DNA from: Eledone cirrhosa
Taxonomy: Eukaryota
NCBI GenBank assembly: GCA_964016885.1
Contig: OZ024743.1
Span: 201,872,001-201,936,000, forward strand
Direction of reading: 5' to 3'
Length of the DNA: 64,000 bases
The notes below the pieces were generated by a model that saw nothing but the letters and a program-made list of their open reading frames with translations, did not search any database and had not been told where the DNA came from. Below, one piece after another: positions 13,232 to 59,136 of the stretch (the first letter of the stretch is position 1; each line of letters opens with the position of its first letter). The position numbers and the translations under genes were made by a program.

Positions 13232-13270
<39 letters not shown>

Positions 13271-16200
13271 TATTATTACTTTTTTTTTTTTTTTTTTTCC
13301 AATTCAATGATGTTCCAGAACAATATAAAAGAGATAATTGGCAATTTAGGTTCTGGAACAAAAAAGATAATTGGCAATAAGGGCAGGGGCCCCAGGTTAT
13401 CACAGCCTGGGCCCGCTCGTCATCGTGCCATTGTAACAGAGCCAAACAAGGCATTTAGTCTTGGCTGCTGGAACGTACGGACGCTGCTTGACAGGGGTTC
13501 TTTGGAGCGTCCTGAACGAAGGACCGCTCTTGTTGCAAAGGAGCTTCGACGTTACGATCTTGACATCGTGGCTTTATCTGAGACGAGGTTAGCTGGAGAT
13601 GGTCATCTTACAGAATTTTGTGGAGAATATACATTCTTCTGGAAAGGAAGAGATGAAGGAACCAGAAGAGAGGCTGGGGTAGGATTTGCTGTTAAGACTC
13701 TACTTGTGAATAAATTAGAAGAATTCCCAGTAGGGATTAGTGAGCGTCTTATGTCCATGAGAGTTCCGCTGGACAAAGAAAGATATGCTACCCTGGTGAG
13801 TGTGTATGCTCCAACTTTCTGTCGATGAAGAAAAAGTGTCCTTTTACCATGCCTTGAAAGGTGTTTTAAGAAATATCCCTCAGGCAGACAAAGTCATCGT
13901 GCTTGGTGACTTTAATGCTAGAGTGAGTAGGGATTTTAACACATGGAATGTAATCGGAAGGCATGGGGTGTGAAAGTGTAACAGCAATGGTATGCTCCTG
14001 CTGCAGATGTGTGAGGAGCTGGATCTGTGTGTTACCAACACCATGTTCCAACAAAAGAACAAATTCAAGACCACATGGATGCATCCTGCATCTAAGGAAT
14101 GGCATCTTTTGGACTACGTCCTAGTCAAGATGCGTGACAGACAGGATGTGCAGTGTGTTCGTGCTCTTCGTGGAGCTGAGTGCTGGACGGACCACCGCCT
14201 GGTACGCGCAAAAGTGAAACTAATCACTAAACGTAAAATCCGGGCTCCTGGTGTTGCCCTGCCCAAAAGATTGAATGCTGCTCGTCTTAAGGATAAAAAT
14301 GTGAAGAGGACATTGGAAGAAGAGATGCAGGCTGCAGATCTTGGTGAGGATTGGCCGACCCTTAAAAGGTCGGTTTATGATGTAGGCAGGCGTGTTCTGG
14401 GATTGGTGCAGAGAAAACATCAGGACTGGTTTAATGAGAATGATGTACATATAGAAGACTTGGTGGCTGATAAGAGGCGTGCTCTGTCACGCTACTTGAC
14501 GGCAAAACCACAGGAGAGGAGTACGTTGCATGAGGAACTCATGGATGTAAAATCACGTGTTAGCTGGAGTCTTTCTCAGATGAAGGATCAGTGGTGGAGT
14601 GAGAAGGCTAATGAGATACAAACTGCGTCAGATTCCAATAACACAAAGCTGTTATACAGTCTCTTACGTGAGGGTTATGGACCGTCTTCTTCTTTGGTGA
14701 CACCACTTCGCAGCAAGGATGGCAAAGAACTTCTTCGTGACTCACAAGGAATTCTACGAAGGTGGTGAGAGCACTTTGATGATCTTTTGAATCAGCCGTC
14801 TGTCGTCAGTGAAGATTTCCTCAATCTCATTCCAGAAAGTCCTGTGAAAGTAGCTCTCGCAGAACCTCCGACGCTTGTGGAGGTTGCAGTGGCTATTTCG
14901 AAGCTGAACAGTGGAAGATCTCCAAGTATGGATGGCATGCATGCTGAGCTCCTACAATATGGTGGTGAGAGACTCCTGTAACATGTCGGAGCCTATCTCA
15001 ATAAAAAATGGAGTGAAACAGGGGGATATTCCAGCACCGACCCTGTTTGCCATATACTTTGCAATGGTTTTCTGTATTGCATTCAGGAATTGCGAGCATG
15101 GTGTTTACATCCGATATCTAACCTCAGGCAGCATATTTAACATCAAGCGCTTTGCTGCGAAGACAAAAGTATTTACATCAATCATAAGAGACCTCTTGTA
15201 TGCAGATGATTGCGATCTTGTAGCGCACACAGAGAGTGATATGCAGCACATTTTGAATGCATTTTCTGACGCTTGCACTGCCCTAGGATTGACTGTCAGT
15301 CTCAAGAAAACCGTCGTCATGTACCACCCTGCCCCTGGTAAGCAGTACACTGAACCAAACATCTATGTGTATGGCAAACGACTTGGAGTGGTTGATCAGT
15401 TTGTCTACCTGGGAAGCACTGTCAATCGATACAGCAACCTTGACAGTGAAATCTCACTTAGGATTAGGAAAGCAAGTGATGCTTTCGGAAAGCTAGAAAG
15501 GCGACTCTGGGGTCGGCGAGACATATGCAGGAGGACAAAGGTAAAGGTGTACAGGGCATGTGTGCTCTCTTGTCTTCCTTATGCCTGCGAGACCTGGGTC
15601 ACATATCGACACCACCTTAAGCAATTGGAGCGTTTCCATCAGATGTGTCTCAGACGGATCCATGGCGTTCACTGGAGGGACCACATCAGTGATGTCGAGA
15701 TTTTGGAAAGCTCTATGTGTGACAGTATAGAAGCTCTTGTGCTTAAGCAACGACTCCGTTGGAGTGGTCACCTTGCCAGGATGAAGGATTCTAGAATACC
15801 AAAACAACGCTTTTATGGAGAGTTGGTTAAAGGAAAACGACCGCCACATAAACTAAAAAAGAGGTATAAGGATTCCTTGAAAGCCTCTCTGAAAGACGCT
15901 AACATCTCTGCTGATACATGGGAAAATAATGCTGCTGATCGTAATAAATGGAGAAAGACTGTATATGAGGGAAAAGTTGCCTTTGAGGCATCTCGAATCG
16001 CATACGAGAAAGTAAAGAGGGATGTGAGGAAGGGCATTGCTGTTGCATTTCCAGACGGCGTGGGTCCTCCTATGGTGCTGACATGTGCGAGACTCTGCCT
16101 AAGCAAAGCTGGACTCGAAAGTCATCTTCGCAGTCATAAAGTAAGACCAGTGGTTGACTACCAGGCTGATGTTGGAGATGCTACTCATCATGCTTGCCAA

Positions 16201-16377
16201 ACATGTGGTAGAGAATGTAAATCAGCAGGAGGGCTCAAGCGACATCCAAAAGTACACGAACTCCAACCACAGCCGACTATTCCCAGTGAATGTTTTGGTT
16301 GCCGACTCTGTGCAAGACATTTTAGATCATTGGCTGGGCTAAAAAGCCACATTCGATCGCAGCGCTGTTAGTTGCTA

Positions 16378-21905: not shown

Positions 21906-22771
21906 AGAGGTGTGTAAGAAAAGTTCCAGGACTGATGTCACAAAAGATTTATTTCAAACCCAAACTTCACACTAAAAGTTTTCTCCTTCAAATAATCCCC
22001 CTGGAGTCTAATGTACTTTTCCATCTTTTTCTGCCACGCTTGCATCCACTCCTGGAAGGATTCTTCCGGCATCCTCCGCAGTTCCGTCGTCACAGCCTTT
22101 TTGATGTCGTCTACATCTTCAAAACGGGTCCCCTCCGGGTCGTACTCGAAGATCCATGACTCATCACCGGTGATGACTGTCCCTAGCATGTCTGGTTCGG
22201 TTTCAAGACGCTCGAGGATGTCCTGGCACACTTGCATGCGTCGACCCTTCTGGTCATCGTTCAGCAGTTTTGGCACCATCTTCTCGCAGACTTTCCGCAT
22301 GTCCAAATCTTCAGTGAGAATCTTCCAGACGCTGTCCCGATTCATGCCCAGCTCATTTGCCATCAGTCGAACAGTCAGCCGACGATCACTACACACCATC
22401 TGCCTGACGCGCTCAACGTTGACCTCAGTCCTGGTTGTTGAGGGCCTTCCGCTCCTGGGGTCATCTTGCAACTCTCAAAAACACGTGAGCGTGACATCGT
22501 CTCATCTCCATACACTTGCTGCAGCAATCCCAGTGCTTATGTGCCAGAAACTTCAAGTTTGTTCGTTGCTCTGTGCGCAATGCTTGACGACCTGAAACAG
22601 AGGACATGTATATAAAATTATGAAGAAAAAAGTTTGATCTCTTCAGAGAGCTAAGATTACAGTTACATACTCCAGGGGGATTACTTTGAAGGAGAAAACT
22701 CTTAGTGTGAAGTTTGGATTTGAAATAAATCTTTTGTGACATCAGTCCTGGAACTTTTCTGACACACCTCG
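21906..22771 (-). mobile_element. Internally deleted mariner transposon, ~100-bp TIRs, TA target duplication
   Basis: TA|aGAGGTGTGTAAGAAAAGTTCCAGGACTGATG...CATCAGTCCTGGAACTTTTCTGACACACCTCG|TA; ORF has DDPRSGRP, MVPKLL, ITGDESWIFEYDPE joined directly to GTRFEDVDDIK. Confidence 0.92.
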
Positions 22772-27884: not shown

Positions 27885-27885
27885 T

Positions 27886-28689
27886 GAAAAAATGAAATTT
27901 CATTTCTCACTCTTAGTACGGCCGATACTTAAATATAAGTATGTATACGTACATACATGTATGTATACAGACGTACAGTAGTATGTATATATATACATAT
28001 ATGCACACACACACACATATATATATGTACGTATGGGTTTACCGAACATTTATATTCATTTATTATAATGTTCGGTTTGTTTGTAAACAAACAGCCCGAA
28101 TTAAGCCGTACAGTGTTCGGCAACCATCGTTGCCCTTTTGTTCAACACTGACAAAGGAACGATGAACTAGTTTCAAGCTTATTAGCTATCCTCAGCACGG
28201 TATACCTCCTGTCAGATGATTGAACGTTTGAAAGTATATACTTTCCTTATGCATATTAACGGCTGAGCAGCCTAATTTGCTTATCGAGTGAGTTAGTCGG
28301 CCGGGCGTACTGAAAACGATAATTGGAAAAAATGAAATTTCATTTCTCACTCTTAGTACGACTGATACTTAAATATAAGTATGTATACGTACATACATAT
28401 ATGTATACAGACGTACAGTAGTATGTATATATATATTCATACATGCACACACATATATATATGTACGTATGGGTTTACCAAACATTTATTATAATGTTCG
28501 GTTTGTTTGTAAACAAACAGCTCGAATTAAGCCGTACAGTGTTCGGCAACCATTTTTGCCCTTTTGTTCAACACTGACAAAGGAACGATATACTAGTTTC
28601 AAGCTTATTAGCTATCGTCAGCACCGTATACCTTCCTGTCAGATGATTGAACGATGATTATAATAAATGTTCGGTAATCCCATACGTAC

Positions 28690-28720
<31 letters not shown>

Positions 28721-29216
28721 CATGTATGTATATATATTCATACTACTGTACGTCTGTATACATATATGTATGTACGTATACATACTTATATTTAAGTAAC
28801 AGCCGTACTAAGAGTGAGAAATGAAATTTCATTTTTTCCATTTAGCATTTTCGGTACGCCCGGCGCACTAACACACACGATATGCAAATTAGGTTGCTCA
28901 CCCGTTAATATGCATAAGGAAAGTATATACTTTCAAACGTTCGATCATCTGACAGCAAGATGTACGGTGCTGATGATAGCTAATAAGCTTGAAACTAGTT
29001 CATCGTTCCTTTGTCAGTGTTGAACAAAAGGGCAACGATCGTTGCCGAACACTGTACGGTTTAAATCGGGTTGTTTGTTTACAAACAAACCGAACATTAT
29101 AATAAATGTTTGGTAAACCCATACGTACATATATATATGTGTGTGCATGTATGAATATATATATACATAATACTGTACGTCTGTATACATATATGTATGT
29201 ACGTATACATACTTAA
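27886..29216. repeat. Divergent pair of family-A retrozyme-like repeats; HHRs at 28159-28201 (-), 28585-28627 (-), 28964-29006 (+)
   Basis: Homologous to 1-477; strand switch at ~28655; ACGGTG CTGATGA TAGCTAATAAGCTT GAAA CTAG TT CATCGT. Confidence 0.87.
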
Positions 29217-29573: not shown

Positions 29574-29959
29574 AGAAGCAGAAAATTGCTTATTGTGTTC
29601 CAGTTTCATGGACGGTTTCAACGTACGGTTAGGGGTAACTCCACAAGTTTGTAAGAATTCCGTTCAATCTTGGAGTATAAAGTATAAAAGAGAAAACAGA
29701 GGTAAGCATTAAGAGAAGGATTTTATCCAGGTATTTACGACCGTTTCATTGGTAAGTGCAACCTTATATTGCTATATTGCAAATAGGAGCCACTCATTTA
29801 TAATTGTTTTTCACGTCCAAATTTTCAAAATTTTGGACGTGAACAACAATTATCATTGAGTGGCTGCTATTTGCAATATAGCAACATAAGGTTGCACTTA
29901 CCAATGAAACGGTCATAAATACCTGGATAAAATCCTTCTCTTAATGCTTACCTGTGTTT

Positions 29960-29966
<7 letters not shown>
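29568..29966. mobile_element. Palindromic pLTR-like insertion with degenerate HHR between (TA)n tracts
   Basis: Imperfect palindrome 29689-29965 plus ~120-nt left tail; right arm has TTAT..TGA[stem]GAAA CGG TC ATAA. Confidence 0.6.
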
Positions 29967-30041
<75 letters not shown>

Positions 30042-30046
<5 letters not shown>

Positions 30047-33000
30047 TAAGTTAAAGATGTACATCCATATATGTATACTGAAATACTAGTATGTATATGA
30101 ATACACACACGTATACATATGTAGATGTACCAAGTTTTTTCACTGGTCACTTTACTGTGAGTGGCCAGCTATTCTGTATGTAAACACACAGACAAACCGG
30201 TTTTTAGAGTCATACTGGTTTTTGAGGAAACACCTTTCCTCTATTCTCTAGAAAGCCAGACAAGGAATATTGAACTAGTTTCGTTGTTGTTACAACTCAT
30301 CAGCAATATTTACCTATCTTCCGGCCTCTCTAGAGAATCGTAAAAGCACATATCGTTATATGCTTTTTCTATGAAAATTAGTAGTGGGCATACTAATTTG
30401 CATAGAGTGTGAGTAAGTACCGGTTCAACGGAGACGATAAAAACAAATAACGAAACGAAATTAAATTTTGTTTCATTTGTAACTCACTTTTGTATGACTG
30501 ACGCTTAAACAATTAAGTTAAAGATGTACATCCATATATGTATACTGAAATACTAGTATGTATATGAATACACACACGTATACATATGTAGATGTACCAA
30601 GTTTTTTCACTGGTCACTTTACTGTGAGTGGCCAGCTATTCTGTATGTAAACACACAGACAAACCGGTTTTTAGAGTCATACTGGTTTTTGAGGAAACAC
30701 CTTTCCTCTATTCTCTAGAAAGCCAGACAAGGAATATTGAACTAGTTTCGTTGTTGTTACAACTCATCAGCAATATTTACCTATCTTCCGGCCTCTCTAG
30801 AGAATCGTAAAAGCACATATCGTTATATGCTTTTTCTATGAAAATTAGTAGTGGGCATACTAATTTGCATAGAGTGTGAGTAAGTACCGGTTCAACGGAG
30901 ACGATAAAAACAAATAACGAAACGAAATTAAATTTTGTTTCATTTGTAACTCACTTTTGTATGACTGACGCTTAAACAATTAAGTTAAAGATGTACATCC
31001 ATATATGTATACTGAAATACTAGTATGTATATGAATACACACACGTATACATATGTAGATGTACCAAGTTTTTTCACTGGTCACTTTACTGTGAGTGGCC
31101 AGCTATTCTGTATGTAAACACACAGACAAACCGGTTTTTAGAGTCATACTGGTTTTTGAGGAAACACCTTTCCTCTATTCTCTAGAAAGCCAGACAAGGA
31201 ATATTGAACTAGTTTCGTTGTTGTTACAACTCATCAGCAATATTTACCTATCTTCCGGCCTCTCTAGAGAATCGTAAAAGCACATATCGTTATATGCTTT
31301 TTCTATGAAAATTAGTAGTGGGCATACTAATTTGCATAGAGTGTGAGTAAGTACCGGTTCAACGGAGACGATAAAAACAAATAACGAAACGAAATTAAAT
31401 TTTGTTTCATTTGTAACTCACTTTTGTATGACTGACGCTTAAACAATTAAGTTAAAGATGTACATCCATATATGTATACTGAAATACTAGTATGTATATG
31501 AATACACACACGTATACATATGTAGATGTACCAAGTTTTTTCACTGGTCACTTTACTGTGAGTGGCCAGCTATTCTGTATGTAAACACACAGACAAACCG
31601 GTTTTTAGAGTCATACTGGTTTTTGAGGAAACACCTTTCCTCTATTCTCTAGAAAGCCAGACAAGGAATATTGAACTAGTTTCGTTGTTGTTACAACTCA
31701 TCAGCAATATTTACCTATCTTCCGGCCTCTCTAGAGAATCGTAAAAGCACATATCGTTATATGCTTTTTCTATGAAAATTAGTAGTGGGCATACTAATTT
31801 GCATAGAGTGTGAGTAAGTACCGGTTCAACGGAGACGATAAAAACAAATAACGAAACGAAATTAAATTTTGTTTCATTTGTAACTCACTTTTGTATGACT
31901 GACGCTTAAACAATTAAGTTAAAGATGTACATCCATATATGTATACTGAAATACTAGTATGTATATGAATACACACACGTATACATATGTAGATGTACCA
32001 AGTTTTTTCACTGGTCACTTTACTGTGAGTGGCCAGCTATTCTGTATGTAAACACACAGACAAACCGGTTTTTAGAGTCATACTGGTTTTTGAGGAAACA
32101 CCTTTCCTCTATTCTCTAGAAAGCCAGACAAGGAATATTGAACTAGTTTCGTTGTTGTTACAACTCATCAGCAATATTTACCTATCTTCCGGCCTCTCTA
32201 GAGAATCGTAAAAGCACATATCGTTATATGCTTTTTCTATGAAAATTAGTAGTGGGCATACTAATTTGCATAGAGTGTGAGTAAGTACCGGTTCAACGGA
32301 GACGATAAAAACAAATAACGAAACGAAATTAAATTTTGTTTCATTTGTAACTCACTTTTGTATGACTGACGCTTAAACAATTAAGTTAAAGATGTACATC
32401 CATATATGTATACTGAAATACTAGTATGTATATGAATACACACACGTATACATATGTAGATGTACCAAGTTTTTTCACTGGTCACTTTACTGTGAGTGGC
32501 CAGCTATTCTGTATGTAAACACACAGACAAACCGGTTTTTAGAGTCATACTGGTTTTTGAGGAAACACCTTTCCTCTATTCTCTAGAAAGCCAGACAAGG
32601 AATATTGAACTAGTTTCGTTGTTGTTACAACTCATCAGCAATATTTACCTATCTTCCGGCCTCTCTAGAGAATCGTAAAAGCACATATCGTTATATGCTT
32701 TTTCTATGAAAATTAGTAGTGGGCATACTAATTTGCATAGAGTGTGAGTAAGTACCGGTTCAACGGAGACGATAAAAACAAATAACGAAACGAAATTAAA
32801 TTTTGTTTCATTTGTAACTCACTTTTGTATGACTGACGCTTAAACAATTAAGTTAAAGATGTACATCCATATATGTATACTGAAATACTAGTATGTATAT
32901 GAATACACACACGTATACATATGTAGATGTACCAAGTTTTTTCACTGGTCACTTTACTGTGAGTGGCCAGCTATTCTGTATGTAAACACACAGACAAACC

Positions 33001-33425
33001 GGTTTTTAGAGTCATACTGGTTTTTGAGGAAACACCTTTCCTCTATTCTCTAGAAAGCCAGACAAGGAATATTGAACTAGTTTCGTTGTTGTTACAACTC
33101 ATCAGCAATATTTACCTATCTTCCGGCCTCTCTAGAGAATCGTAAAAGCACATATCGTTATATGCTTTTTCTATGAAAATTAGTAGTGGGCATACTAATT
33201 TGCATAGAGTGTGAGTAAGTACCGGTTCAACGGAGACGATAAAAACAAATAACGAAACGAAATTAAATTTTGTTTCATTTGTAACTCACTTTTGTATGAC
33301 TGACGCTTAAACAATTAAGTTAAAGATGTACATCCATATATGTATACTGAAATACTAGTATGTATATGAATACACACACGTATACATATGTAGATGTACC
33401 AAGTTTTTTCACTGGTCACTTTACT
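30042..33425 (-). repeat. 467-bp retrozyme-like tandem array, block 1 (~7.2 units, 7 HHRs on minus strand)
   Basis: Exact 467-bp period; HHR at 30266-30310 + n*467. Confidence 0.95.
30266..30310 (-). ncRNA. Minimal type I hammerhead ribozyme (first of 7 minus-strand copies)
   Basis: Reverse complement of 33832-33876. Confidence 0.9.
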
Positions 33426-36400
33426 AGAGAATAGAGGAAAGGTGTTTCCTCAAAAACCAGTATGACTCTAAAAACCGGTTTGTCTGTGTGTTTACATACA
33501 GAATAGCTGGCCACTCACAGTAAAGTGACCAGTGAAAAAACTTGGTACATCTACATATGTATACGTGTGTGTATTCATATACATACTAGTATTTCAGTAT
33601 ACATATATGGATGTACATCTTTAACTTAATTGTTTAAGCGTCAGTCATACAAAAGTGAGTTACAAATGAAACAAAATTTAATTTCGTTTCGTTATTTGTT
33701 TTTATCGTCTCCGTTGAACCGGTACTTACTCACACTCTATGCAAATTAGTATGCCCACTACTAATTTTCATAGAAAAAGCATATAACGATATGTGCTTTT
33801 ACGATTCTCTAGAGAGGCCGGAAGATAGGTAAATATTGCTGATGAGTTGTAACAACAACGAAACTAGTTCAATATTCCTTGTCTGGCTTTCTAGAGAATA
33901 GAGGAAAGGTGTTTCCTCAAAAACCAGTATGACTCTAAAAACCGGTTTGTCTGTGTGTTTACATACAGAATAGCTGGCCACTCACAGTAAAGTGACCAGT
34001 GAAAAAACTTGGTACATCTACATATGTATACGTGTGTGTATTCATATACATACTAGTATTTCAGTATACATATATGGATGTACATCTTTAACTTAATTGT
34101 TTAAGCGTCAGTCATACAAAAGTGAGTTACAAATGAAACAAAATTTAATTTCGTTTCGTTATTTGTTTTTATCGTCTCCGTTGAACCGGTACTTACTCAC
34201 ACTCTATGCAAATTAGTATGCCCACTACTAATTTTCATAGAAAAAGCATATAACGATATGTGCTTTTACGATTCTCTAGAGAGGCCGGAAGATAGGTAAA
34301 TATTGCTGATGAGTTGTAACAACAACGAAACTAGTTCAATATTCCTTGTCTGGCTTTCTAGAGAATAGAGGAAAGGTGTTTCCTCAAAAACCAGTATGAC
34401 TCTAAAAACCGGTTTGTCTGTGTGTTTACATACAGAATAGCTGGCCACTCACAGTAAAGTGACCAGTGAAAAAACTTGGTACATCTACATATGTATACGT
34501 GTGTGTATTCATATACATACTAGTATTTCAGTATACATATATGGATGTACATCTTTAACTTAATTGTTTAAGCGTCAGTCATACAAAAGTGAGTTACAAA
34601 TGAAACAAAATTTAATTTCGTTTCGTTATTTGTTTTTATCGTCTCCGTTGAACCGGTACTTACTCACACTCTATGCAAATTAGTATGCCCACTACTAATT
34701 TTCATAGAAAAAGCATATAACGATATGTGCTTTTACGATTCTCTAGAGAGGCCGGAAGATAGGTAAATATTGCTGATGAGTTGTAACAACAACGAAACTA
34801 GTTCAATATTCCTTGTCTGGCTTTCTAGAGAATAGAGGAAAGGTGTTTCCTCAAAAACCAGTATGACTCTAAAAACCGGTTTGTCTGTGTGTTTACATAC
34901 AGAATAGCTGGCCACTCACAGTAAAGTGACCAGTGAAAAAACTTGGTACATCTACATATGTATACGTGTGTGTATTCATATACATACTAGTATTTCAGTA
35001 TACATATATGGATGTACATCTTTAACTTAATTGTTTAAGCGTCAGTCATACAAAAGTGAGTTACAAATGAAACAAAATTTAATTTCGTTTCGTTATTTGT
35101 TTTTATCGTCTCCGTTGAACCGGTACTTACTCACACTCTATGCAAATTAGTATGCCCACTACTAATTTTCATAGAAAAAGCATATAACGATATGTGCTTT
35201 TACGATTCTCTAGAGAGGCCGGAAGATAGGTAAATATTGCTGATGAGTTGTAACAACAACGAAACTAGTTCAATATTCCTTGTCTGGCTTTCTAGAGAAT
35301 AGAGGAAAGGTGTTTCCTCAAAAACCAGTATGACTCTAAAAACCGGTTTGTCTGTGTGTTTACATACAGAATAGCTGGCCACTCACAGTAAAGTGACCAG
35401 TGAAAAAACTTGGTACATCTACATATGTATACGTGTGTGTATTCATATACATACTAGTATTTCAGTATACATATATGGATGTACATCTTTAACTTAATTG
35501 TTTAAGCGTCAGTCATACAAAAGTGAGTTACAAATGAAACAAAATTTAATTTCGTTTCGTTATTTGTTTTTATCGTCTCCGTTGAACCGGTACTTACTCA
35601 CACTCTATGCAAATTAGTATGCCCACTACTAATTTTCATAGAAAAAGCATATAACGATATGTGCTTTTACGATTCTCTAGAGAGGCCGGAAGATAGGTAA
35701 ATATTGCTGATGAGTTGTAACAACAACGAAACTAGTTCAATATTCCTTGTCTGGCTTTCTAGAGAATAGAGGAAAGGTGTTTCCTCAAAAACCAGTATGA
35801 CTCTAAAAACCGGTTTGTCTGTGTGTTTACATACAGAATAGCTGGCCACTCACAGTAAAGTGACCAGTGAAAAAACTTGGTACATCTACATATGTATACG
35901 TGTGTGTATTCATATACATACTAGTATTTCAGTATACATATATGGATGTACATCTTTAACTTAATTGTTTAAGCGTCAGTCATACAAAAGTGAGTTACAA
36001 ATGAAACAAAATTTAATTTCGTTTCGTTATTTGTTTTTATCGTCTCCGTTGAACCGGTACTTACTCACACTCTATGCAAATTAGTATGCCCACTACTAAT
36101 TTTCATAGAAAAAGCATATAACGATATGTGCTTTTACGATTCTCTAGAGAGGCCGGAAGATAGGTAAATATTGCTGATGAGTTGTAACAACAACGAAACT
36201 AGTTCAATATTCCTTGTCTGGCTTTCTAGAGAATAGAGGAAAGGTGTTTCCTCAAAAACCAGTATGACTCTAAAAACCGGTTTGTCTGTGTGTTTACATA
36301 CAGAATAGCTGGCCACTCACAGTAAAGTGACCAGTGAAAAAACTTGGTACATCTACACATGTATACGTGTGTGTATTCATATACATACTAGTATTTCAGT

Positions 36401-38835
36401 ATACATATATGGATGTACATCTTTAACTTAATTGTTTAAGCGTCAGTCATACAAAAGTGAGTTACAAATGAAACAAAATTTAATTTCGTTTCGTTATTTG
36501 TTTTTATCGTCTCCGTTGAACCGGTACTTACTCACACTCTATGCAAATTAGTATGCCCACTACTAATTTTCATAGAAAAAGCATATAACGATATGTGCTT
36601 TTACGATTCTCTAGAGAGGCCGGAAGATAGGTAAATATTGCTGATGAGTTGTAACAACAACGAAACTAGTTCAATATTCCTTGTCTGGCTTTCTAGAGAA
36701 TAGAGGAAAGGTGTTTCCTCAAAAACCAGTATGACTCTAAAAACCGGTTTGTCTGTGTGTTTACATACAGAATAGCTGGCCACTCACAGTAAAGTGACCA
36801 GTGAAAAAACTTGGTACATCTACATATGTATACGTGTGTGTATTCATATACATACTAGTATTTCAGTATACATATATGGATGTACATCTTTAACTTAATT
36901 GTTTAAGCGTCAGTCATACAAAAGTGAGTTACAAATGAAACAAAATTTAATTTCGTTTCGTTATTTGTTTTTATCGTCTCCGTTGAACCGGTACTTACTC
37001 ACACTCTATGCAAATTAGTATGCCCACTACTAATTTTCATAGAAAAAGCATATAACGATATGTGCTTTTACGATTCTCTAGAGAGGCCGGAAGATAGGTA
37101 AATATTGCTGATGAGTTGTAACAACAACGAAACTAGTTCAATATTCCTTGTCTGGCTTTCTAGAGAATAGAGGAAAGGTGTTTCCTCAAAAACCAGTATG
37201 ACTCTAAAAACCGGTTTGTCTGTGTGTTTACATACAGAATAGCTGGCCACTCACAGTAAAGTGACCAGTGAAAAAACTTGGTACATCTACATATGTATAC
37301 GTGTGTGTATTCATATACATACTAGTATTTCCGTATACATATATGGATGTACATCTTTAACTTAATTGTTTAAGCGTCAGTCATACAAAAGTGAGTTACA
37401 AATGAAACAAAATTTAATTTCGTTTCGTTATTTGTTTTTATCGTCTCCGTTGAACCGGTACTTACTCACACTCTATGCAAATTAGTATGCCCACTACTAA
37501 TTTTCATAGAAAAAGCATATAACGATATGTGCTTTTACGATTCTCTAGAGAGGCCGGAAGATAGGTAAATATTGCTGATGAGTTGTAACAACAACGAAAC
37601 TAGTTCAATATTCCTTGTCTGGCTTTCTAGAGAATAGAGGAAAGGTGTTTCCTCAAAAACCAGTATGACTCTAAAAACCGGTTTGTCTGTGTGTTTACAT
37701 ACAGAATAGCTGGCCACTCACAGTAAAGTGACCAGTGAAAAAACTTGGTACATCTACATATGTATACGTGTGTGTATTCATATACATACTAGTATTTCAG
37801 TATACATATATGGATGTACATCTTTAACTTAATTGTTTAAGCGTCAGTCATACAAAAGTGAGTTACAAATGAAACAAAATTTAATTTCGTTTCGTTATTT
37901 GTTTTTATCGTCTCCGTTGAACCGGTACTTACTCACACTCTATGCAAATTAGTATGCCCACTACTAATTTTCATAGAAAAAGCATATAACGATATGTGCT
38001 TTTACGATTCTCTAGAGAGGCCGGAAGATAGGTAAATATTGCTGATGAGTTGTAACAACAACGAAACTAGTTCAATATTCCTTGTCTGGCTTTCTAGAGA
38101 ATAGAGGAAAGGTGTTTCCTCAAAAACCAGTATGACTCTAAAAACCGGTTTGTCTGTGTGTTTACATACAGAATAGCTGGCCACTCACAGTAAAGTGACC
38201 AGTGAAAAAACTTGGTACATCTACATATGTATACGTGTGTGTATTCATATACATACTAGTATTTCAGTATACATATATGGATGTACATCTTTAACTTAAT
38301 TGTTTAAGCGTCAGTCATACAAAAGTGAGTTACAAATGAAACAAAATTTAATTTCGTTTCGTTATTTGTTTTTATCGTCTCCGTTGAACCGGTACTTACT
38401 CACACTCTATGCAAATTAGTATGCCCACTACTAATTTTCATAGAAAAAGCATATAACGATATGTGCTTTTACGATTCTCTAGAGAGGCCGGAAGATAGGT
38501 AAATATTGCTGATGAGTTGTAACAACAACGAAACTAGTTCAATATTCCTTGTCTGGCTTTCTAGAGAATAGAGGAAAGGTGTTTCCTCAAAAACCAGTAT
38601 GACTCTAAAAACCGGTTTGTCTGTGTGTTTACATACAGAATAGCTGGCCACTCACAGTAAAGTGACCAGTGAAAAAACTTGGTACATCTACATATGTATA
38701 CGTGTGTGTATTCATATACATACTAGTATTTCAGTATACATATATGGATGTACATCTTTAACTTAATTGTTTAAGCGTCAGTCATACAAAAGTGAGTTAC
38801 AAATGAAACAAAATTTAATTTCGTTTCGTTATTTG

Positions 38836-38842
<7 letters not shown>
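33424..38842 (+). repeat. 467-bp retrozyme-like tandem array, block 2 (~11.6 units, 11 HHRs on plus strand)
   Basis: Exact 467-bp period, inverted relative to block 1; HHR at 33832-33876 + n*467. Confidence 0.95.
33832..33876 (+). ncRNA. Minimal type I hammerhead ribozyme (first of 11 plus-strand copies)
   Basis: AATATTG CTGATGA GTTGT-aaca-ACAAC GAAA CTAG TT CAATATT: 7-bp stem I, 5-bp stem II, palindromic stem III, GUU triplet. Confidence 0.92.
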
Positions 38843-38880
<38 letters not shown>

Positions 38881-38944
38881 AAATATGTATATATATATAT
38901 ATATATATATAAATATGTATATATATATATATATATATAAATAT

Positions 38945-39042
<98 letters not shown>

Positions 39043-39254
39043 ATGTATGTATATGTGTATGAATTTGTTTCTCATGAGTCAGTTCTTTCGTTGCTACGGA
39101 CCCCGGCTGAATTACCAGTCGCTGTCTTCATTTTGCAAAGCCCTTTAAACTGTATGTTATTATTCTGAGGTCCTAGACATTGTCGAGTGCTTGGCTGCAC
39201 TGCTGAAAGCATTCCTCGGCTTAGCAAGGGCTCTGGTTTCGAATATGCTGTACT

Positions 39255-39600
39255 TCCATTTTTATATATATATATATATGTGTATATATATACATACATT
39301 TATATACATATGTACGTATGGGTTATATCGAATATTAATAATAATGTTCGATCCATTTGTAAAGAGACGGTCCGATTTGAAGCTGTGCCGTGCAGGAGAG
39401 CGATCGTCACTTGTTTGTTCAACATTGGCTTTGAGGAACAATCATCATGTTTCTGGGTCAATCCCTTTCACCAAGACTGCATACCTCTGCCAGGCTGTTG
39501 AACGAATGAAAATACATAGTATTTTCTTAAGTACACATCGGCTGAATAGCCTCATATGCATAACGAGCGAGTTACGGTTGCCATTGCCGAATATTAAAAA
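39255..39600 (-). repeat. Old diverged copy of retrozyme-like family A with degenerate HHR
   Basis: Collinear with 28020-28320; minus strand GCAGTC TTGGTGA AAGGG..CCCA GAAA CATG AT GATTGT. Confidence 0.6.
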
Positions 39601-39718
39601 TATTTTATTTCTCGCCCTAGCACAGCTGATACATAAATGTATATGTATATATGTGTGTCTATGTATACATATATATGTCTATACATATATATATGTGTGT
39701 GTACGTGTGCATATTTAC

Positions 39719-42229: not shown

Positions 42230-43290
42230 AACTCAGGATTTTGTGTTGGCAAGAGGAGAAAATATCCGATTTCCTGTTAAGCAGGTTCAGTTTAGAGTGT
42301 ATTATGGCATGGCATTCTAGTAAACACAGGTCACAACTCCCGCTCTGCGGTCGGTATGGTGTGTAGTATGCTTCCTCCAAAAAAGTTTGTATGGGGTATT
42401 ATTATTTTTTAAAAAGGAGATGTATCCCGCCAGTGAGGTGGCATTCTTATGTCTATCGTGTCTAAATGTGCACATATGCGCGTTATAACTAGTTTTAAAT
42501 GTATTGGACGTTGATACTATATATGTTTTGGTAGTGTTGTGTGTGGTTACGTCACATGCATATACGATGTTTTTCATGAGGCAAGCCCCCCTTAGGGGAC
42601 AGTTATTACTCTGCATACAATTGCAACTGCGGGTTCGATCAGTTAGCGTACCTCCCGAACTTTGGTTACTAGCATTATCACTAGGTGCCTCTATATCATT
42701 AGATGGCTCAGTGATGCTATTATGTTGCCTATTTTCCAGTGTAGTCGGTTGCTGGTGGTTAACTGCCATTTTAATTGTTTCGAAACCTTCCCTAGTTTTC
42801 CTAATGTTCGTGCATGCTAGGTGTGATGCGAGGTTAGGAGTGGTCGAATAGGATAATTTAATCACGTTTTTGTTAATTATGTTGCGACATCTATTGCCTG
42901 GTGGGAAGTTTTTTTCTAATAATGAGAAGAATACTCTGGGGAGGTTAGTGAGGACCTCAGAATTAAAAGGTGGGTTAAAATACATGTTTTTCCTTCTTCT
43001 ATTTGTCTTATCTGTGGGGTGAGTCTCATTACTGTGCGTACTATTTTGTAGGGTTCCGTTATTAACGTTAGTGGCGTTGTCTGTTTTGCTTATGCCCGGA
43101 TGGTTTATATTCATGGCATGATCATTTGCTGCTTTAGAGTTGTGGTGAGGGACTCTAGTATTGTCTCTACGTGGTTTACATTTAGCTGGGTTAGCGCCAT
43201 TAGGGTTCTAACTATTATTCTTGCCTCTACGTTGGTTAGGCTTTGTGGCCATACTATGTGTGATTATGTTGGTAGGTTTCACACTCATGG
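42230..43290 (-). pseudogene. Naiad linker + GIY-YIG endonuclease remnant
   Basis: YFNPPFNSEVLTN, IKLSYSTTPNL, CNCMQSNNCPLRGACL..IVYAC..YIVST..FKTSYNAH. Confidence 0.87.
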
Positions 43291-45059: not shown

Positions 45060-46860
45060 TAATTTTGTATTGGTTTTCCGTACCCTTTCCTCACTCGTCT
45101 TGTTTATCCTTTTGCATTCACCCCTTTTGTTCCACTTCCCCCTCGTACCACACACTTCTCCTCTCTTCCACCGTCCCCCTTGCTTTTTGACCACCCTTCC
45201 TCTTAGACACTCCGCACCCACCATGCCTAGCCTGAAATCCTTTCTCCACCAACTCCACACACGCCTTAAACACTTCCTCACCCCTCCTCCCACCCTTCTA
45301 TCTCCCTAAGGCCCTCCAACTCGCCAAGAGTCGGCATTCCAACCACATCCCTTTCCTCAGTCGCTGCCTCCACCCCCACCTCATCCCCCATGGCTTCTGA
45401 TTTCACTCCACCCCCTTCGCTTCCGTCACCACCCAACGTATCCTCACCAGCTCCTCGCGTCTCATCATGTGCAACTCCCTTCGCTCCGCACTCTCCACCA
45501 TCCGCAACCTCGACCACAAACTCCCGACCACCCTCCTCCACCTCCACTCCGCGTGCGACCCACACCTAGTGCACTCCTCCTCCTCTTCATCAACTCAACC
45601 ACGACCTCTTTCACTTCCTCACCTCCACCAGAGCCCACAAGCTCCACTCACTCCTCCATCTACTTCCTCCCCAAGATCCACAAACCCGACAACCCAGGCC
45701 GCCCCATCGTCTCCTCCTGCAACTAACCCACAGAATTCATCTCCGCCTTTCTCTACTCCATCCTCTCCCCCCTCGTCACCACCATCCCCTCCCACATCTC
45801 CGACACCAACCATGCCCTTCACCTGTTTGACACCCTCACTTTCCCACTTGGTCCACATCCCGTTCTCTTCACACTAAGTCACTTTACACCGTCATCCCCC
45901 ACACCGACGGCCTACGCACCCTCCAGCACTACCTCGACCTTCACCCCTGCCAACTCCCCCGTCCCCTCCACCCCATCCTCCTTCGCCTGGCCGAGCTGAT
46001 CCTCACCCTTAACTGCTTCTCCGTCTCGTGTCAGTTTTACCAGCAGGTCACTGGGGTAGCCATGTACACAAGAATGGGCCCCAACTATTTCAAACCTTTT
46101 CGTTGTCCATGTTGAGGCCCAAATCTTTGACCAATACACCGGCCCCATGGTACATCGACGACTGCATCGGAACCACGACCCTCACCCGAGAACTTTCTCT
46201 CCTTCTTCTGCTCCTTCCACCCCTCCCTCCACTTCACCACCTCTATCTCCACTACGCACGTCCACTTCTTGGACATCTCCGTCGCCTCCCACCGACTACC
46301 ACTCCTTCCCAGACTTCACCTCCTCCTACCTCACATACACCAAACACTCCATTCCCTACTCCCAACTCCGGATCCACCGCCACTGCAGCGGAGATGCTGA
46401 CTTCGAGACTCAGGCTCTGTCTCTGGTCAGCCATTTCATCTGGAGAGGTTAACGTCCACGCCGCCATCACTCGCGGCCGCGCCACCCCACTCATCCACCG
46501 TATCCCACTCCCCCACACCTACTACTGCTCCACAGCACCATCCGACGCCTCTTCGGACGCCTCAAGTCCGACCTCTCCACTTCCCCCATCTTCCCATCCC
46601 CACCCCCTCCTTCAAACGCGCACGCAAACTCTGCAACCTCCTCGCCCGCAGCACCCTACCCCAACCCACGTTCCGCCCGGTTCCCTTCCCCGCTTCAGAT
46701 CTGGCTACCCCACTTTCCCCCACATCACCAACACCACCATATTCCAGGGTACCAACGGCCACTCTCACTCTCTGTCCGTCTTGCCTTCAAATGCACCTAC
46801 TCCAACCTCGTCTACGGACTTCGCTGCACGGAGTGCACGGCAACCTACGTCGGACAGACA
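45060..46860 (+). pseudogene. Decayed C-rich Neptune-like PLE (RT + GIY-YIG)
   Basis: YFLPKIHKPDNPGRPIVSSC, LYTVIPHTDGL, QQVTGVA, WYIDD, SIPYSQ, NLVYGLRCTECTATYVGQT across frames. Confidence 0.82.
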
Positions 46861-49040
46861 TAGAAGCGTTCAAAACGAACGCAGAAACGCGCGCACAGAA
46901 GCACAGAACAACGTGCACACCAAAAACACGCACATAATATTGCACAAAAGGCGCAAAACGCACGAAAAGTGCACATGAAAGCGCACAAAAATACGCACAT
47001 AGAAGCACACAAAACAAACGCAGAAACGCGCACACAAAGCCAAACGAACCAGGCGCACATAAAACGCACAAACAGTGCACACGAAAGCGCACAGAGACGC
47101 GCATATAAAGTCGCAAAAAACGCGCACAAAAAACGCACAAAAATGCACATGAAAGCACACAAAAACGCGCACATAAAATTTCACAAATCGTGCACATGAA
47201 ATCACAACACAGAAGCGCACACAAAAGCGAACATAAAACGACAAAATATGCACATGAAAGCGCAGAAAGGCGCGCACATAAAATCTATACAAAAGCGCAC
47301 ATAAAACGCACCAAAAGTGCACATGACTGCGCACAAAAACGCACAGATAAAAGCCCACAACAATGCTCACATAGAAGCGCACAAAACGACCGCAGAAACG
47401 CACACACAGGAGCACACAACAAGGTACAAAGAAAAACGCGCCCATAAAACAAAACGCACAAAAAATGCACATGAAAACTCACAAAAACGCGCACATAAAA
47501 TCGCAAACAAAAGCGCACATGAAACGCACAAAAAGCGCACAAAAGTGCACAAAAATGAGCATATAGAAGCGCACAAAACGAACACAGAAACGCGCACACA
47601 GAACCACACAACAAACCCACACAAAAAACGCACAAAGAGTGCACATGAAAGCGCACATATAGTCGCACAAAACGCGCATATAAAACGCACAAAAAATGCA
47701 CATGAGAGCACACAAAAACGCGCCATGAAATTGCACAAAACGTGCACATAAAATCGCACACAAAAGCGCACACAAAACGCACATGAAATCGCACAATAAC
47801 GCGCAACTAGAAGCGCACAAAAACGCGCACATAGAAGAAGAACGCACAAAAAGTGAACATGGAAGCGCACAAAACTTGTACATAAACTCGCACACAAAAG
47901 CGCACACAAAACGCACATGAAATCGCACAATAACGCGCACCTAGAAGCGCACAAAAACGCGCACATAGAAGAAGAACGCACAAAAAGTGCACATGGAAGC
48001 GCACATAAAGGCGTCGAAAAATGTGCTCATAGAAGCGCACAAAACGAGCGCAAAACGCGCACATAAAATCGCAGAACACGCGCACATAAAACGCATACAA
48101 ATGCACATGAAAGCACACAAAGACGCGCACGTAATATCACACAAAAATGCGCACATAGAAACGCACAAAAAACGCAAAAACGCACAGACACATACAAAAA
48201 GGCGCACAAAAAATATACATGAAAGCAAACGAAAACGTGCAAATCAAAATGCACGAAATCACACATAAAATGCACAAGAAGTGCACACGAACGGAGAAAC
48301 GCGCATATAAAAGCGGAAATAAAACGCACAACAATGCACATAAAAGCGCTCAAAATGCGCACATAAAATCGCACAAAAAGCGCAGAGAAAACGCACAAAC
48401 AATGAACATGAAAGCCCAGAAAAAGGCGCAAATAAAAGCCCACATAGAAGTCCACAAATCGCGCACAAAAAATGCGCATGAAAGCGCACAAAAACGCACA
48501 GATAGAAGCGCACAAAAAGTGCATATAGAAGCGCACAAAAACGCGCACATAAAAGCGCACATAATCCACACCAAATGCACATGAAAGCGCACAAATACGC
48601 GCACATAAAATCGCACAGCACGCGCACATAAAACGCACAAAAATGCATATGAAATCACAAAAAAACGCGCACATAAAATTGCAAAAATGCGCACATAAAA
48701 TCATACACAAAAGCGCACATATAACGCACAAAACGTGCCCATGAAAGCGCACAAAAACACGCACATATAAGCGCACAAAATGAACGCGGAAACTCGCCCA
48801 CGGAAGCAAACAAAAAAACTTGCCCATAAAACCCACCAACAGTGCACATGAAAGCGCACAAAGACGGGCACATAAAGTCACACAAAATGCGCACATAAAA
48901 CGCACAAAAAATGTCCGCCCATGAAAGCACACAAAAACGCGCACATAAATTCCCACAGAACGCGCACATAAAACGCAAAAAAAAAAACTGCACATGAAAG
49001 CGCACAAAGACGCGCACAAAACGAACGCAAAAACGCGCAT
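46860..49040. repeat. Degenerate minisatellite of ~11-12-bp GCGCACA(T)AAAA-type units
   Basis: 2.2 kb of GCACA/GCGCAC motifs alternating with A-tracts; strongly T-depleted plus strand. Confidence 0.9.
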
Positions 49041-52000
49041 ACAGAAGTGCGGCCACAGAAAGAGTATGACCCTGGCACTTGTTGATGGACATAACAAAAC
49101 TGACAGGAAGCGGAAATTGAAGTCTTCGGAAGGTGAAAGGAATTTCTGCTCACGAGGTGATGAGAGGAATTCTCGGAATGAAGACATCATCACCTTTTCC
49201 GCATCCAGGAAGGATTGTTGCCTCGATTACATGTGCCATCAATTCTTTTACAGCTAGGTGTCTCCCGTACACAGTCTTGGTGGTTCCAAATTCCCCAGCA
49301 GAATACAGGGTTGCCAACTTTAAGGAGAAGCATGTGAATTGTGGAACTCCGGCGGAAAGTTCACCACTTCATTGGGATCTGGCATCGTGTCAACAGATTT
49401 GTAAGTGTGAAGAACACCAGGAAGGGAGTGCAGTAGTTGATAGTTGGTTTTGTTAACAGCGACGTTCTTTGGAGCTAGCACTGCTCTTTCACCCAACCAT
49501 GTGGTTCTGGTAATTGTCTCTCAAATCTAGAAACACTTTGTCTTTCAGCTCCCCGCAGAATTAACTAAGGTCGAAAATGGCCACACTTCCAGCTCTCCTG
49601 CAGCGTCCAGAAGTATTTTGCCGTTGCCAAGTTTCAAAATGTCGTGTGCAAATTCCGCGGACATTTGGTCGCCGTGTAATTGAGCTCTCATGTTGGTGGT
49701 AAGAATCAGTGTCCTGACATGGCGCCACAGAGGCGAGGACTTTAGGCATGCTTGGACCTCTTCTGCTCTTGTGTTTTTGGGAATGACGGGAAGTGTCTGC
49801 CTGAAGTCACCCGAAAGCAGAAGCGTAACACCTCCCATGGGAGCCTGGCAGCCTCTGATGTCCTTTAGAGCTCTGTTTAATGCGTCCAGAGTTCTCTTAT
49901 GGGCTATGGTGCACTCATCCCAATCAATGAGCTGACATCGTTTTAGGACTTGGCCCTGGTCGGAGGTCTTGCTGATGCTGCAAGTAGGCGTTTCTGACGT
50001 TGTTAAATGGAGAGGCAATTTAAAACTGGAGTGGGCGGTCCTGCCACAGGGCAACAAAGTGGCAGCAATTCCAGAAGAGGCAACAGCAACCGCAATGTCC
50101 TTGTGCATCCTGACTTTTGCAAGGAGGAGTCTCGTTAAAAATGTTTTGTCCGTCCCTGCAGGATCATCCCGAAAGAACATCCCCCTTTTCTGTGGCGCAC
50201 ATGGTCGGCAACGATGGTGTAAGCACGACGTTGGTCCGGAAGAAGTTGTGGTTCAGTTTCAAGGATGTACTTGGTAAGAGCATCGACGTCGTAGGACGTT
50301 TCTCGGATAAGAGCTGTAGGAAGTACGTTTGACCCTGTACGGATCGTTTGGGGCAGACAATATGAGGGCAAATAATTTCCGCCGAGTGATGCAACTCTAT
50401 CCTCTATGTCAATCAATGCTAGATTGAAGACCTCGTCGCTGGTATGTTCCATCTCAGGGTTCTGCACTTGCGCCTGACGTTTGTAGTCCCCGGATAAGTC
50501 ATCTTTATACTTGAGCCACAAAGAGATAGGATTACTCAGTTCGCAAGTTTGCAGCAGTACTGATGAGATGCAGCACTTCGAATAAAGTGGCATCCCACTG
50601 CGCACCGTCTTCTAGTAGGCCGCGCTTGAAGCAAGCTTCCCTGTAAGTGCTGCACATGGAACCGTCGGCAGTTCTAAGGTCATGAAAGGACTGGCGTCCT
50701 CTTACCTCATGTAGCAGAAGACGGAAGTAGAAGCACTCTTGCTGGTTCGGGTGCACTGTGTAATCTCTCCCTAGACAAATGTCAAACTTTATGCCAGGAT
50801 GTCCATCAATAGGCTGACCTGCCTTTCTGCGAGCCCATTGTTGTTTATTCCATGTGTAATAGGCCGACACCTGAGGATACAGCAGGGTTTGAGCAAATGA
50901 ATCGGCCTGATAAAATTTGAAGAATGCAGTGAGGGTGGTTTCCCGTGGTTCCTCGACCATTTGAGCAACATTAACGTCAGTGAATTACACCCTTTGACCG
51001 TTCTGATGGTGGACTGCGAGCTGTTCAATTGCAGGGTGCCTTTGGTGTATAGAGAAGCCAAAAATACGCCAGAAAGCCTCGTTGCTGCTGATGCAACGGC
51101 CAACTTGGTATTGCGTGACTTCATCACGGCTGTTGTCCTGTTGAAGACCGAACATAGCAGCCTCGGAATCCTTATTCACATATTTACATATGTACTTGAT
51201 TGACTTGACGGAATTACAGAACTCGACATTGATGTGAGCACCGAAGGTCTTAGAAATAAATGGGCAGTATGGCACTCTCCACCTGTTGTCGACCTCGTGC
51301 TGTTCAACTATTGCTGTAAAACCACCGTCTCCGGGATGACGTCGGCTGTACAGTGGGTATTCGTCAACGCCAGTCTGGGTTTCTTGGAGGAACTTTCGGG
51401 GAAATCTTTTGCTTCAGACATTGTTGTTCAAGTAGGGTGAGCTTAAATTGAAACCCCGCCCACATGGACTATGGACAATGTTTCTCTCAACTATATCATA
51501 GAGCTCTTTGTCTATAGACGGATCTGGAAACTCTGCGGAGATGATGCTGTCAATGTCATTTGAAGATATTTTTGTTGACAGCCAAATGAGGATGTCGGCG
51601 TGCGGTTGGCCCCTCTTCTGCCACTCTACGGTGTACATGTCGCACTTTACTGGGCCAAAGACTTTCCCTCTCTTGATGAGCTCCATAAGATTGATAAGCT
51701 TCGGCCGAAAGATTCCGGCCAGGAGGTCATGCCTGTCTTTGGCCTGTTGCCCTTGGAACATTTCTGCCCCGATCTCCTTCCACTTTGGATTGCAAGTGAA
51801 TGTGATGAACAGATCGGGCCTGCCGTAATACCGTACGTAGGTCATAGCATCCTGCGTTCTCTCGTGTATGTAGCGCGGACTTCCATGAAGGTGGAGAGGA
51901 GAATGCAGACTTTTACTACGCTGCTGGGAGCTGCGTCATTGTTGATGGCATCTCGGAGATGGATGTAGCTCTCGGACTGCAGTTGCCTTTGGTTTGACCG

Positions 52001-53613
52001 TATGAAACACAGTCTCTCCAATTCCATTTTTGCGCACATATCAACGGCGAATTGCTGAAGTAGATCTCTTGACTGGTGCAGGTGATTGAAGGAATCGTGG
52101 CGAACCATGACGGGTAGGAGTAGAAATACATTCATGAAACTGGTTTTTTGACGGAGTGTTGAGGGTTTACTGGATTATGCTGGGGAATTCCGTACTGATA
52201 GCGGTCCTCACCATTTACAAAGAGAAGTGGATACTGGAGCGCATCGTAAGACCTATGTGTTTTGCTGATTCGCTGAAGAGTGCTATCTCGATACTTGAGG
52301 AAAATGTCTCGTGGGGTATGCTGACCCCCATGCATAAGTACAGCGATTTCATTGCATGCAGGATAATTATACCGACCCGGATGTTCCCCAGATGGCATTT
52401 TCGAGGCATCAATTACCAAATGAAAATTGGCTGTGGTATCTGCTTCCAAGGCATACTTGAAGCTAATGACATAGCTATTTTTTGGCGTGCAGAATGTCTT
52501 TCGGTTTCCTTATAAGCTCGACGTTGGTAGCAGGTGAAATGGAGTTCCTCATGGCTGCCTGCTCGTTCACATTCCCAACAAAGTACAGCTGAAGAAATTG
52601 AGGTTCTTGATTGGCGGCAGGTTGGAGGGATCCGATTCTATGGTACACCTGACCTTGCACCTTAAATGTGGGCATAAATCCGCCTTCCTTGACAATGTTC
52701 GCCCCGAAAGATATCATTTGGCAAGCACAGTTATACCTCCGGATGTAAGTCAGGAAATGCCGTGACTCCGCAGTACTGCCTGAATATAGGAGCTTCAACG
52801 GTTGTGATGGATCCTCCAGGGGACGTAATTTTACTTTTCCATTTGCACAACACAAACCAGGTGTTTCTTCGGGCCACTTTTTTGCATTGCAGAAAGAGCA
52901 CGTCTTTGACATACTCCCAATTCGCATGTCTGAATGGCCACTGTAATCAAAGTCAGGGTTGTACTCGAATGCTTTTAAGGACCATCGTGAGCAACATGGC
53001 CTTGAAATACCCTGCCCAATGGCCCTTCGTTGAGCATTACATTGTAGTGGAATGTCTCGTTCTTGCGAGGTCTGTGTAGCTCGCGCAGCAGCAGTATTCG
53101 CAGCATCCGTACTCCGACGTCTTTTACGCTGGTCTTCCGTATCGGCAACTCGTGTAACAGAAGTTGATGTGGCATTAGCAGTTGGGCGAATGGTTCGTCT
53201 GTTTCAAGTGCTCTTCTGGTGGCAGCACGTTTAGCATTTAGCATCTTGGGACAGTCGAATAGCAGACTCCACTGACGATTCGTTTGCCCGCCCTGTTCTT
53301 GTTGTTGCTGCTTTCGCAGTTTTTCGGCCAATGGAGTATCTCTCCCTTCGAGGTATGACCTAAAGTACACTGAAACTCACTGGTAGAGTAAGGAGTAAAC
53401 TTGTCAGTGAATTAAAAACCGATGCATGTGATTTCCGAACGGTTGACTATGTAATTTCTAAGCCATGAGTGCCGTCTTAAACGGGGTAAATAATTTGAAT
53501 ATTTCTTTTGCTCAAAACACTTACAGGGATATACGTTTTACATGTGTAATGTTTGAAAAAAAATGGTTGGGTACTTCTCGAGTTTTAGGGAAACAGTTAC
53601 ACAGACATTCTTT

Positions 53614-55140: not shown

Positions 55141-55182
55141 TACGAGCCCTCTTTGGATTTTAGTCTTCAAATTTATTATTAT

Positions 55183-56850: not shown

Positions 56851-56930
56851 TAGGAACCAGTAAGACCCCGACGGCTGAGCTCAAGCCGTTTCGAAACGGC
56901 TTGAGCTCAGCCGTCGGGGTCTTACTGGTT

Positions 56931-56934: not shown

Positions 56935-59135
<2,201 letters not shown>

Positions 59136-59136
59136 T

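Follow-up and report, generated by a model that had tools for sequence, protein, structure and literature searches.

The locus under study raises the question of whether its tandem 467-bp repeats, and the 420-bp repeats in their neighbourhood, are neutral satellite DNA or copies of a structured RNA, and, in the latter case, by which route such copies entered the genome. The region considered, hereafter the window, is the whole analysed stretch of 64,000 nucleotides, and the genome searched is a 3.0-Gb animal assembly. A sequence-only reading of positions 33630–34100, which correspond to one 467-bp unit of the + strand array, had proposed that the two repeats are diverged homologues with covarying helices beyond a hammerhead ribozyme, and that selection acts on a whole RNA replicon, in place of neutral satellite drift. 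Our analysis makes it highly probable that the repeats are a retrozyme under RNA-structure selection, and very likely that the mobilisation of this element is driven by Penelope-like elements (PLEs). The superfamily is new, but of a kind already known, namely non-LTR retrozymes.

Organization and homology of the repeats

The 467-bp units form an insertion of two arms, which are joined head-to-head at positions 33421–33425 (Table 1). Units are AT-rich (420–494 bp, about 34% GC) and devoid of LTRs, and within 30042–38842 no ORF reaches 120 aa. Every motif quoted in the sequence-only reading was located, and the homology it had proposed is borne out: the local alignment of the 467-bp and 420-bp units scores 175 versus 30.5±4.7 for shuffled sequences (z=31; 0/500 shuffles reach 175), with identity in 288 of the 480 columns. 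Homology is evident 5' of the ribozyme, a region which by itself yields z=13.7, whereas from the 3' side of the ribozyme to the last hairpin the alignment (z=2.4; 16/500 shuffles) is similar to its reverse-complement control (z=3.0; 7/500). For this reason, the register of the two hairpins that had been quoted is taken from position and from intermediate families, and not from sequence.

Searches with the window copies and with variant core patterns gathered seven families, A (467), B1 (420), B2, B3 (about 490), C, D and E, to which no fewer than 40,000 genomic hammerhead cores belong; a hammerhead-core pattern with palindromic stem III gave 40,324 genome matches versus 8 for the control pattern. 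The family A unit retrieved 218 matches over many contigs, with 99–100% identity among the 150 matches listed; since the best copies are this similar across many contigs, family A is very young. Family C copies are about 7–18% diverged and mostly solitary. An A-subfamily arm at G000:C1:5738327-5752443 comprises about 31 units of 466 bp and carries a compensatory change in stem II.

Table 1. Positions of the repeats, of their predicted RNA and promoter-like features and of other elements within the window.
Feature	Position	Strand	Remarks
Left arm of insertion, 7.2 tandem 467-bp units	30042–33425	−	3' end of the 'short' class, unit position 2–8
Right arm of insertion, 11.6 tandem units	33419–38842	+	3' end of the 'long' class, unit position 75–76
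(TA)n target, left flank of 467-bp insertion	29966–30042		
(TA)n target, right flank of 467-bp insertion	38840–39054		
Long-range helix P3, 3' strand	33643–33650	+	next copy 34110–34117; inside tail, between both ends
Hairpin H7 in tail	33668–33690	+	predicted fold; followed by the unit's only T≥5 run and the long end (~33704)
Octamer ATGCAAAT (33739–33746) and TATA-like box (33780–33787)	33739–33787	+	likely internal snRNA-type promoter, putative function
Extended stem I closing over ribozyme	33805–33898	+	inner part within HH9 model, outer helix beyond HH9
Type I hammerhead	33832–33876	+	core 33839–33845; palindromic stem III 33863–33868; predicted cut after 33869 (GUU)
Hairpin H2	33901–33918	+	first hairpin of the sequence-only reading
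Long-range helix P3, 5' strand	33927–33934	+	
Hairpin H3	33948–33969	+	
Hairpin H4	33974–33999	+	second hairpin of the sequence-only reading
Self-complementary TA-rich segment and short end	34010–34104	+	short end at ~34098–34104
420-bp family B1	1–480	+	one full unit and tail ending in (TA)n
420 family, inverted tail fragment	496–573	−	
420-type family B2, left arm	27885–28709	−	one full (27885–28373) and one partial (28466–28709) unit, with tail
420-type family B2, right-hand unit	28791–29215	+	
Family C, old copy	39316–39637	−	decayed core
B-type copy	57542–57783	−	truncated
B1 copy	59128–59339	−	truncated, with inverted tail
Neptune-like Penelope element	680–4818		inverted arms; a long end and a short end, both in (TA)n
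PLE-like ORF fragments	42317–43207, 45310–46978, 54668–55159, 60248–60634		
Two broken non-LTR retrotransposons	7496–10171, 13217–16371	+	RVT_1 matches
Fragment which we take to be transposase-like	21938–22474	−	
12-bp-period purine-skewed repeat	46955–49040		adjoins Helitron-like element
Broken Helitron-like element	49545–53376	−	PIF1 helicase match

Insertion anatomy and probable relation to Penelope-like elements

Sixty arm ends were classified in family A, after removal of a duplicate, a cross-family match and two ends cut by an edge, and 56 of these fall at unit position 1–8 or 75–77, nearly all of them running into TA repeats; none of the 60 falls at the predicted ribozyme cut (position 240). 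Two-armed insertions combine one long and one short end in 19 of 20 cases (p=4e-5), a count which omits five two-armed loci where one end belongs to neither class or is truncated by the edge of the locus, and the 5' joints of the arms are scattered. The same two end positions, judged by eye to be homologous, recur in B1, B3, C and D, and the (TA)n or AT-rich flanks match in family A as well as in the loci of other families. The two 3' ends, about 70 nt apart in family A, bracket the 3' strand of the long-range helix P3 and hairpin H7; the tail, i.e. the stretch between them, measures about 55–75 nt. The insertions bear a Penelope-like 'tail' signature. For PLEs, tandems are described in which one copy is inverted and truncated at its 5' side and a tail is present at a single end, and some PLEs prefer (TA)n (PMC8557442); in vitro the PLE tail corresponds to the stretch between two internal RT starts (PMC11167929).

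A Neptune-like PLE in the same window displays the same two-ended, head-to-head and TA-flanked anatomy, its tail being about 85 nt long; it contains RT and GIY-YIG fragments at 2106–3541, and at 4713(+) and 868(−) a minimal hammerhead whose stem III is palindromic. The family is abundant, with frames up to 760 aa. An RT plus GIY-YIG ORF is absent from the retrozyme units. In the 30 loci of this one PLE family, the one tested, neither pLTR homology nor any homology to the retrozyme profile was detected, apart from TA-rich matches and separate insertions. The ORF fragments have no Pfam match as PLEs, and those in the window are presumably PLE-derived, judging from their motifs.

Further hammerhead-like cores are seen at 11668/11803, 40016/43378 and 57938, as inverted pairs or alone. 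Near-perfect palindromes adjoin TA tracts at 29755–29965, 56858–56932 and 57778–57810, and are probably the inversion joints of very short two-armed insertions. At locus L304 (G000:C19:7531380-7531510) a family D retrozyme arm lies head-to-head with a U6atac copy, and two other U6atac copies directly follow TA-rich tracts; these arrangements suggest that the same machinery retroposes snRNAs, and that the two arms can derive from different RNAs.

The hammerhead ribozyme

Every unit carries CUGANGA...GAAA together with stems I and II. At the gathering threshold Rfam returned 0 matches: the Hammerhead_HH9 model aligns to 33821–33892 with E=4.5e-8 and 37.7 bits, under its cut-off of 52, and the 420-bp unit has no hammerhead match in Rfam at E≤10. 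Rfam matches of miRNA families to the TA-rich hairpin, with scores far under the cut-off, were taken as chance. Stem I had been listed among the helices beyond the ribozyme; this assignment was mistaken, as it belongs to the ribozyme itself.

The sequence of stem III varies but its palindrome is kept in families A/B, C and E, that of family C being a different one, and in family D stem III is a normal short stem. A U·U is found at the base of stem II in the B families, and the predicted cleavage sites across families are GUU, GUA and GUC. The palindromic stem III predicts cleavage as dimers, the behaviour described for hammerheads with a weak helix III (PMC7761336). On the antisense strand of a unit no hammerhead core was found, other ribozyme classes having been looked for through Rfam only.

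RNA structure outside the ribozyme

Folding of single families results in a shared order of elements, namely extended stem I, H2, P3, H3 and H4, with family E as the exception. Covariation was analysed by projecting the predicted pairs of one family onto another via a sequence-only alignment, excluding the ribozyme core and the TA-rich segment, and the null was obtained by permuting the letters of the second family among paired sites of the same base. When A is projected onto B1, 46 of 64 non-ribozyme pairs are kept versus 37.2±2.4 expected (p=4e-4), with 9 double changes versus 3.3 expected; once the stem I extension is left aside, 36 of 48 pairs are kept versus 29 expected (p=0.001). Covariation is significant in 8 of the 13 directed family comparisons, and on the sequence-only alignment is not significant in any comparison with family E, from D to C or from B2 to C. 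Covarying helices are indeed present outside the ribozyme, as had been claimed. In the 467-bp version of the last of the quoted hairpins 8 of the 9 positions pair, the remaining one being a C·A mismatch.

The strongest covarying helix is P3, one strand of which had been noted as a collinear block, but its partner strand had been missed. The two strands are about 170–280 nt apart, and RNAalifold recovered the helix unaided from a sequence-only alignment of 24 real copies, in which 96.8% of its cells are paired, versus 16–38% in slid controls, with double changes in 6 of its 8 pairs. A tree-aware test at the level of these 24 copies is weak, the best helix having 6 events and the maximum of the null (n=200) being also 6, with a total of 12 events versus 5.1±3.0. 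The clear result depended on family-majority letters and not on this copy-level test: across the six families other than E, the 8 bp are Watson-Crick in 47/47 cells, and their changes comprise 7 double and no single ones, a number of double changes that none of 1200 column permutations attains.

The variation among loci, analysed in five families, points in the same direction. Of 29 paired-site variants common to at least three loci, 23 preserve the pair, versus 69 of 224 singletons (p=7e-7), and the ratio of G·U to A·C is 15:2 among shared variants versus 54:44 among singletons (p=0.014); the equivalent counts from between-family projections are uninformative. Also, in 6 of the 7 families folding is better for the sense than for the antisense strand. 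Because shared variants keep pairing and favour G·U over A·C, selection on the structure of the sense RNA outside the ribozyme is supported. The part of the earlier proposal that concerned RNA-structure selection is thus retained, but not the notion of an RNA replicon, as the RNA would serve only as a template for retrotransposition.

A promoter-like block

The octamer ATGCAAAT is the most conserved block of the units. With 68% paired cells and no double change, it is probably not structural. In three U6 promoters of the genome the octamer is located at −76 to −78 and the TATA at −30, and the best U6atac match has a one-mismatch form of the octamer at −77, three of the four U6atac upstream stretches having been dropped as pseudogene flanks. 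Since the block matches these host promoters, the conservation of ATGCAAAT is likely to operate at the DNA level. A matrix built from these three U6 promoters only has its top score at the octamer block in 7/7 families, with p≤0.015 in six of them; a U1/U2 matrix is not significant in any of the seven, and the octamer is absent within 330 nt upstream of the U1/U2 genes.

The spacing of the elements is distinct: octamer and TATA are separated by 41–43 nt in the retrozymes versus 46–48 nt in U6/U6atac, so the U6-type spacing is not reproduced, and the gap of 25–27 nt from TCAG to TATA is similar to that in U1/U2 (23–28 nt). In insect snRNA promoters a spacing rule of 8 versus 12 bp applies. The predicted transcription start lies 8–29 nt upstream of the hammerhead core. 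On this resemblance we lean, by a small degree, towards a working internal promoter. In family D (L187, L191, L196) the octamer-plus-TCAG block occurs three times in tandem, some copies resembling the host U2 proximal element. A distal motif about 255–270 nt upstream is common to the U1 genes and two U6 genes (L141-L152, L167, L168).

Formation of the arrays and alternative explanations

The arrays look born as arrays. Variants of a given locus are fixed in every unit of both arms at L228 (17/17), L233 (14/14), L223 (5/5) and in the window (17/17), as well as in the single arm of L229 (11/11), and unit-specific changes are almost all singletons. A bottleneck of a single monomer followed by many-fold copying fits a circular template, as proposed for retrozymes (PMC7229834), and we consider circularity of the template moderately probable. 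Two exceptions, L238, whose two units are distinct at 4 sites, and L232, with 5 unit-specific changes in 3 units, count against a single circle, since one circle gives no such differences at birth. Contigs from four sequencing runs of unknown kind display both ends followed by TA repeats, and one is a 497-nt single-unit contig; as this is equally expected from tandem DNA or from a circle, and one run may be the source sample, the runs are excluded as support.

A rather unlikely competitor is a linear read-through multimer as template, the long end being a Pol III 3' end at a T-run and the arrays growing by unequal crossover. The sole T≥5 run of each of five monomers lies just before the long end, which agrees with this Pol III model, but the short end has no T-run and an autonomous PLE has the same two-end pattern. 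The promoter resembles that of U6, yet this promoter region is present in the arrays, although it would be missing from a terminated Pol III transcript. Unprocessed RNA was used by a PLE in vitro (PMC11167929), and local amplification by unequal crossover has been modelled (bioRxiv 2026.07.22.740005); the mosaic locus L238 would also agree with it, whereas the fixation of private variants throughout the units of the two inverted arms, and the rarity of unit-specific variants other than singletons, speak against it.

The remaining alternatives concern the nature of the constraint itself. The covariation of the hairpins might stem from template switching at the DNA level, by which palindromes are repaired, and RNA outside the ribozyme would then be free of selection; perfect palindromes do occur at many insertion junctions in the window, and folding of the antisense strands is good as well (z −1.9 to −5.9). 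However, P3 covaries fully in spite of the distance between its strands, which largely refutes this explanation for that helix, and the preference for G·U over A·C in shared variants is a strand-specific RNA signature, so we judge it improbable. A viroid-like RNA replicating from RNA to RNA, with occasional capture as DNA, is more improbable still: the fold is highly paired, compatible with a circle and provided with a hammerhead, but there is no antisense hammerhead core within the unit, the promoter-like DNA block is kept in all families, and more than 40,000 genomic cores occur with retrotransposon-type ends. As to neutral satellite DNA, the tandem arrays of near-identical units are what it would produce, but the compensatory evolution and the dispersal of copies among many contigs, where their fixed ends lie in (TA)n, leave it a negligible probability; in this respect the sequence-only reading was right to deny neutral drift.

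Proposed mechanism

The explanation that we favour, and consider likely as a whole, combines a retrozyme, an internal promoter, a hammerhead-cut multimer and PLE priming at one start per strand of (TA)n. The course that we infer covers how the RNA would be transcribed, cut and made circular, how a PLE would act on it and what part P3 would play. An internal snRNA-type promoter (octamer, TCAG/CCCA and TATA-like box) would start transcription 8–29 nt before the core, sometimes reading through into later units, and the hammerheads with palindromic stem III would cut the resulting multimer as dimers. Extended stem I may keep the monomer ends together for ligation. A PLE protein would then bind a domain formed by P3 and its neighbours, nick both (TA)n strands and prime cDNA at one start site per strand. 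The observed product has two arms arranged head-to-head, with 3' ends that are fixed and 5' joints that are random, and nearly all units of a locus are identical; rolling around a circle would account for arms of more than 10 units.

A bolder version is tentative and, taken jointly, falls short of even probability. It regards the element as a self-contained retro-RNA circle with its own hybrid snRNA promoter, in which a U6-type octamer and a U1/U2-type spacing would permit read-through, and with a dimer-cleaving hammerhead. A covarying P3 domain would recruit the PLE RT to two starts without sequence homology between element and partner, both (TA)n strands being copied in one event to give two rolling-circle arms.

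Comparison with known systems

The elements resemble the metazoan non-LTR retrozymes (Cervera and de la Pena 2020, PMC7229834) in the type I hammerhead, the AT-rich tandem units without ORF and the proposed circular intermediate and PLE partner, and share with those of axolotl the palindromic weak helix III and the U·U at the base of helix II; the units are slightly longer here (420–494 bp versus 150–450 bp). In the accessible text of that work structure is derived from single-sequence folding, without covariation, whereas here covariation is observed across families. Retrozymes are described as seemingly without promoters and without a motif pointing to a partner (PMC7761336), whereas a promoter-like block and PLE-type ends are found here. 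Those of Xenopus and other vertebrates (bioRxiv 10.64898/2026.07.22.740005) are likewise non-autonomous, PLE-linked and range from monomers to multimers, but are linked by pLTR homology, absent here in the one PLE family tested, and local array growth is proposed for them, whereas our arrays look born as such; the terms 'tail' and 'promoter' are absent from the text of that report.

The EN+ PLEs Neptune, Naiad and Poseidon (PMC8557442; PMC11167929) are alike in their tandem plus inverted 5'-truncated copies with a tail at one end, their (TA)n preference and two internal RT start sites, and so are putative non-autonomous head-to-tail relatives such as MRC1 of Chlamys. However, these PLEs have an RT/GIY-YIG ORF, a tail of 30–40 bp and a minimal hammerhead, whereas the retrozymes have no such ORF, a tail of ~55–75 nt and a full hammerhead with extended stem I. 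Newt satellite 2 is also reported to combine a hammerhead with an internal snRNA promoter (PMC2220036, citing Coats et al. 1994), reported as Pol II; the candidate promoter here best matches the host U6/U6atac element, with a spacing 4–5 nt shorter. The Dolichopoda pDo500 satellite (PMC2837043) has compensatory changes in hammerhead stems, and constraint was demonstrated there for the ribozyme region versus the rest, whereas here it reaches outside the ribozyme. In the accessible portions of the open literature, supplements excluded, neither covariation nor head-to-head two-ended insertions nor these families are reported for animal retrozymes.

By which route animal retrozymes come to be transcribed and mobilised, and which RNA feature is recognised by the PLE RT, are questions that this literature leaves open (PMC7761336, PMC7229834, PMC8557442, as far as their accessible text goes). 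The present superfamily offers a very young and abundant example in which the start sites are mapped, a covarying helix coincides with them and a candidate promoter is available, and therefore each of these questions becomes a direct experiment.
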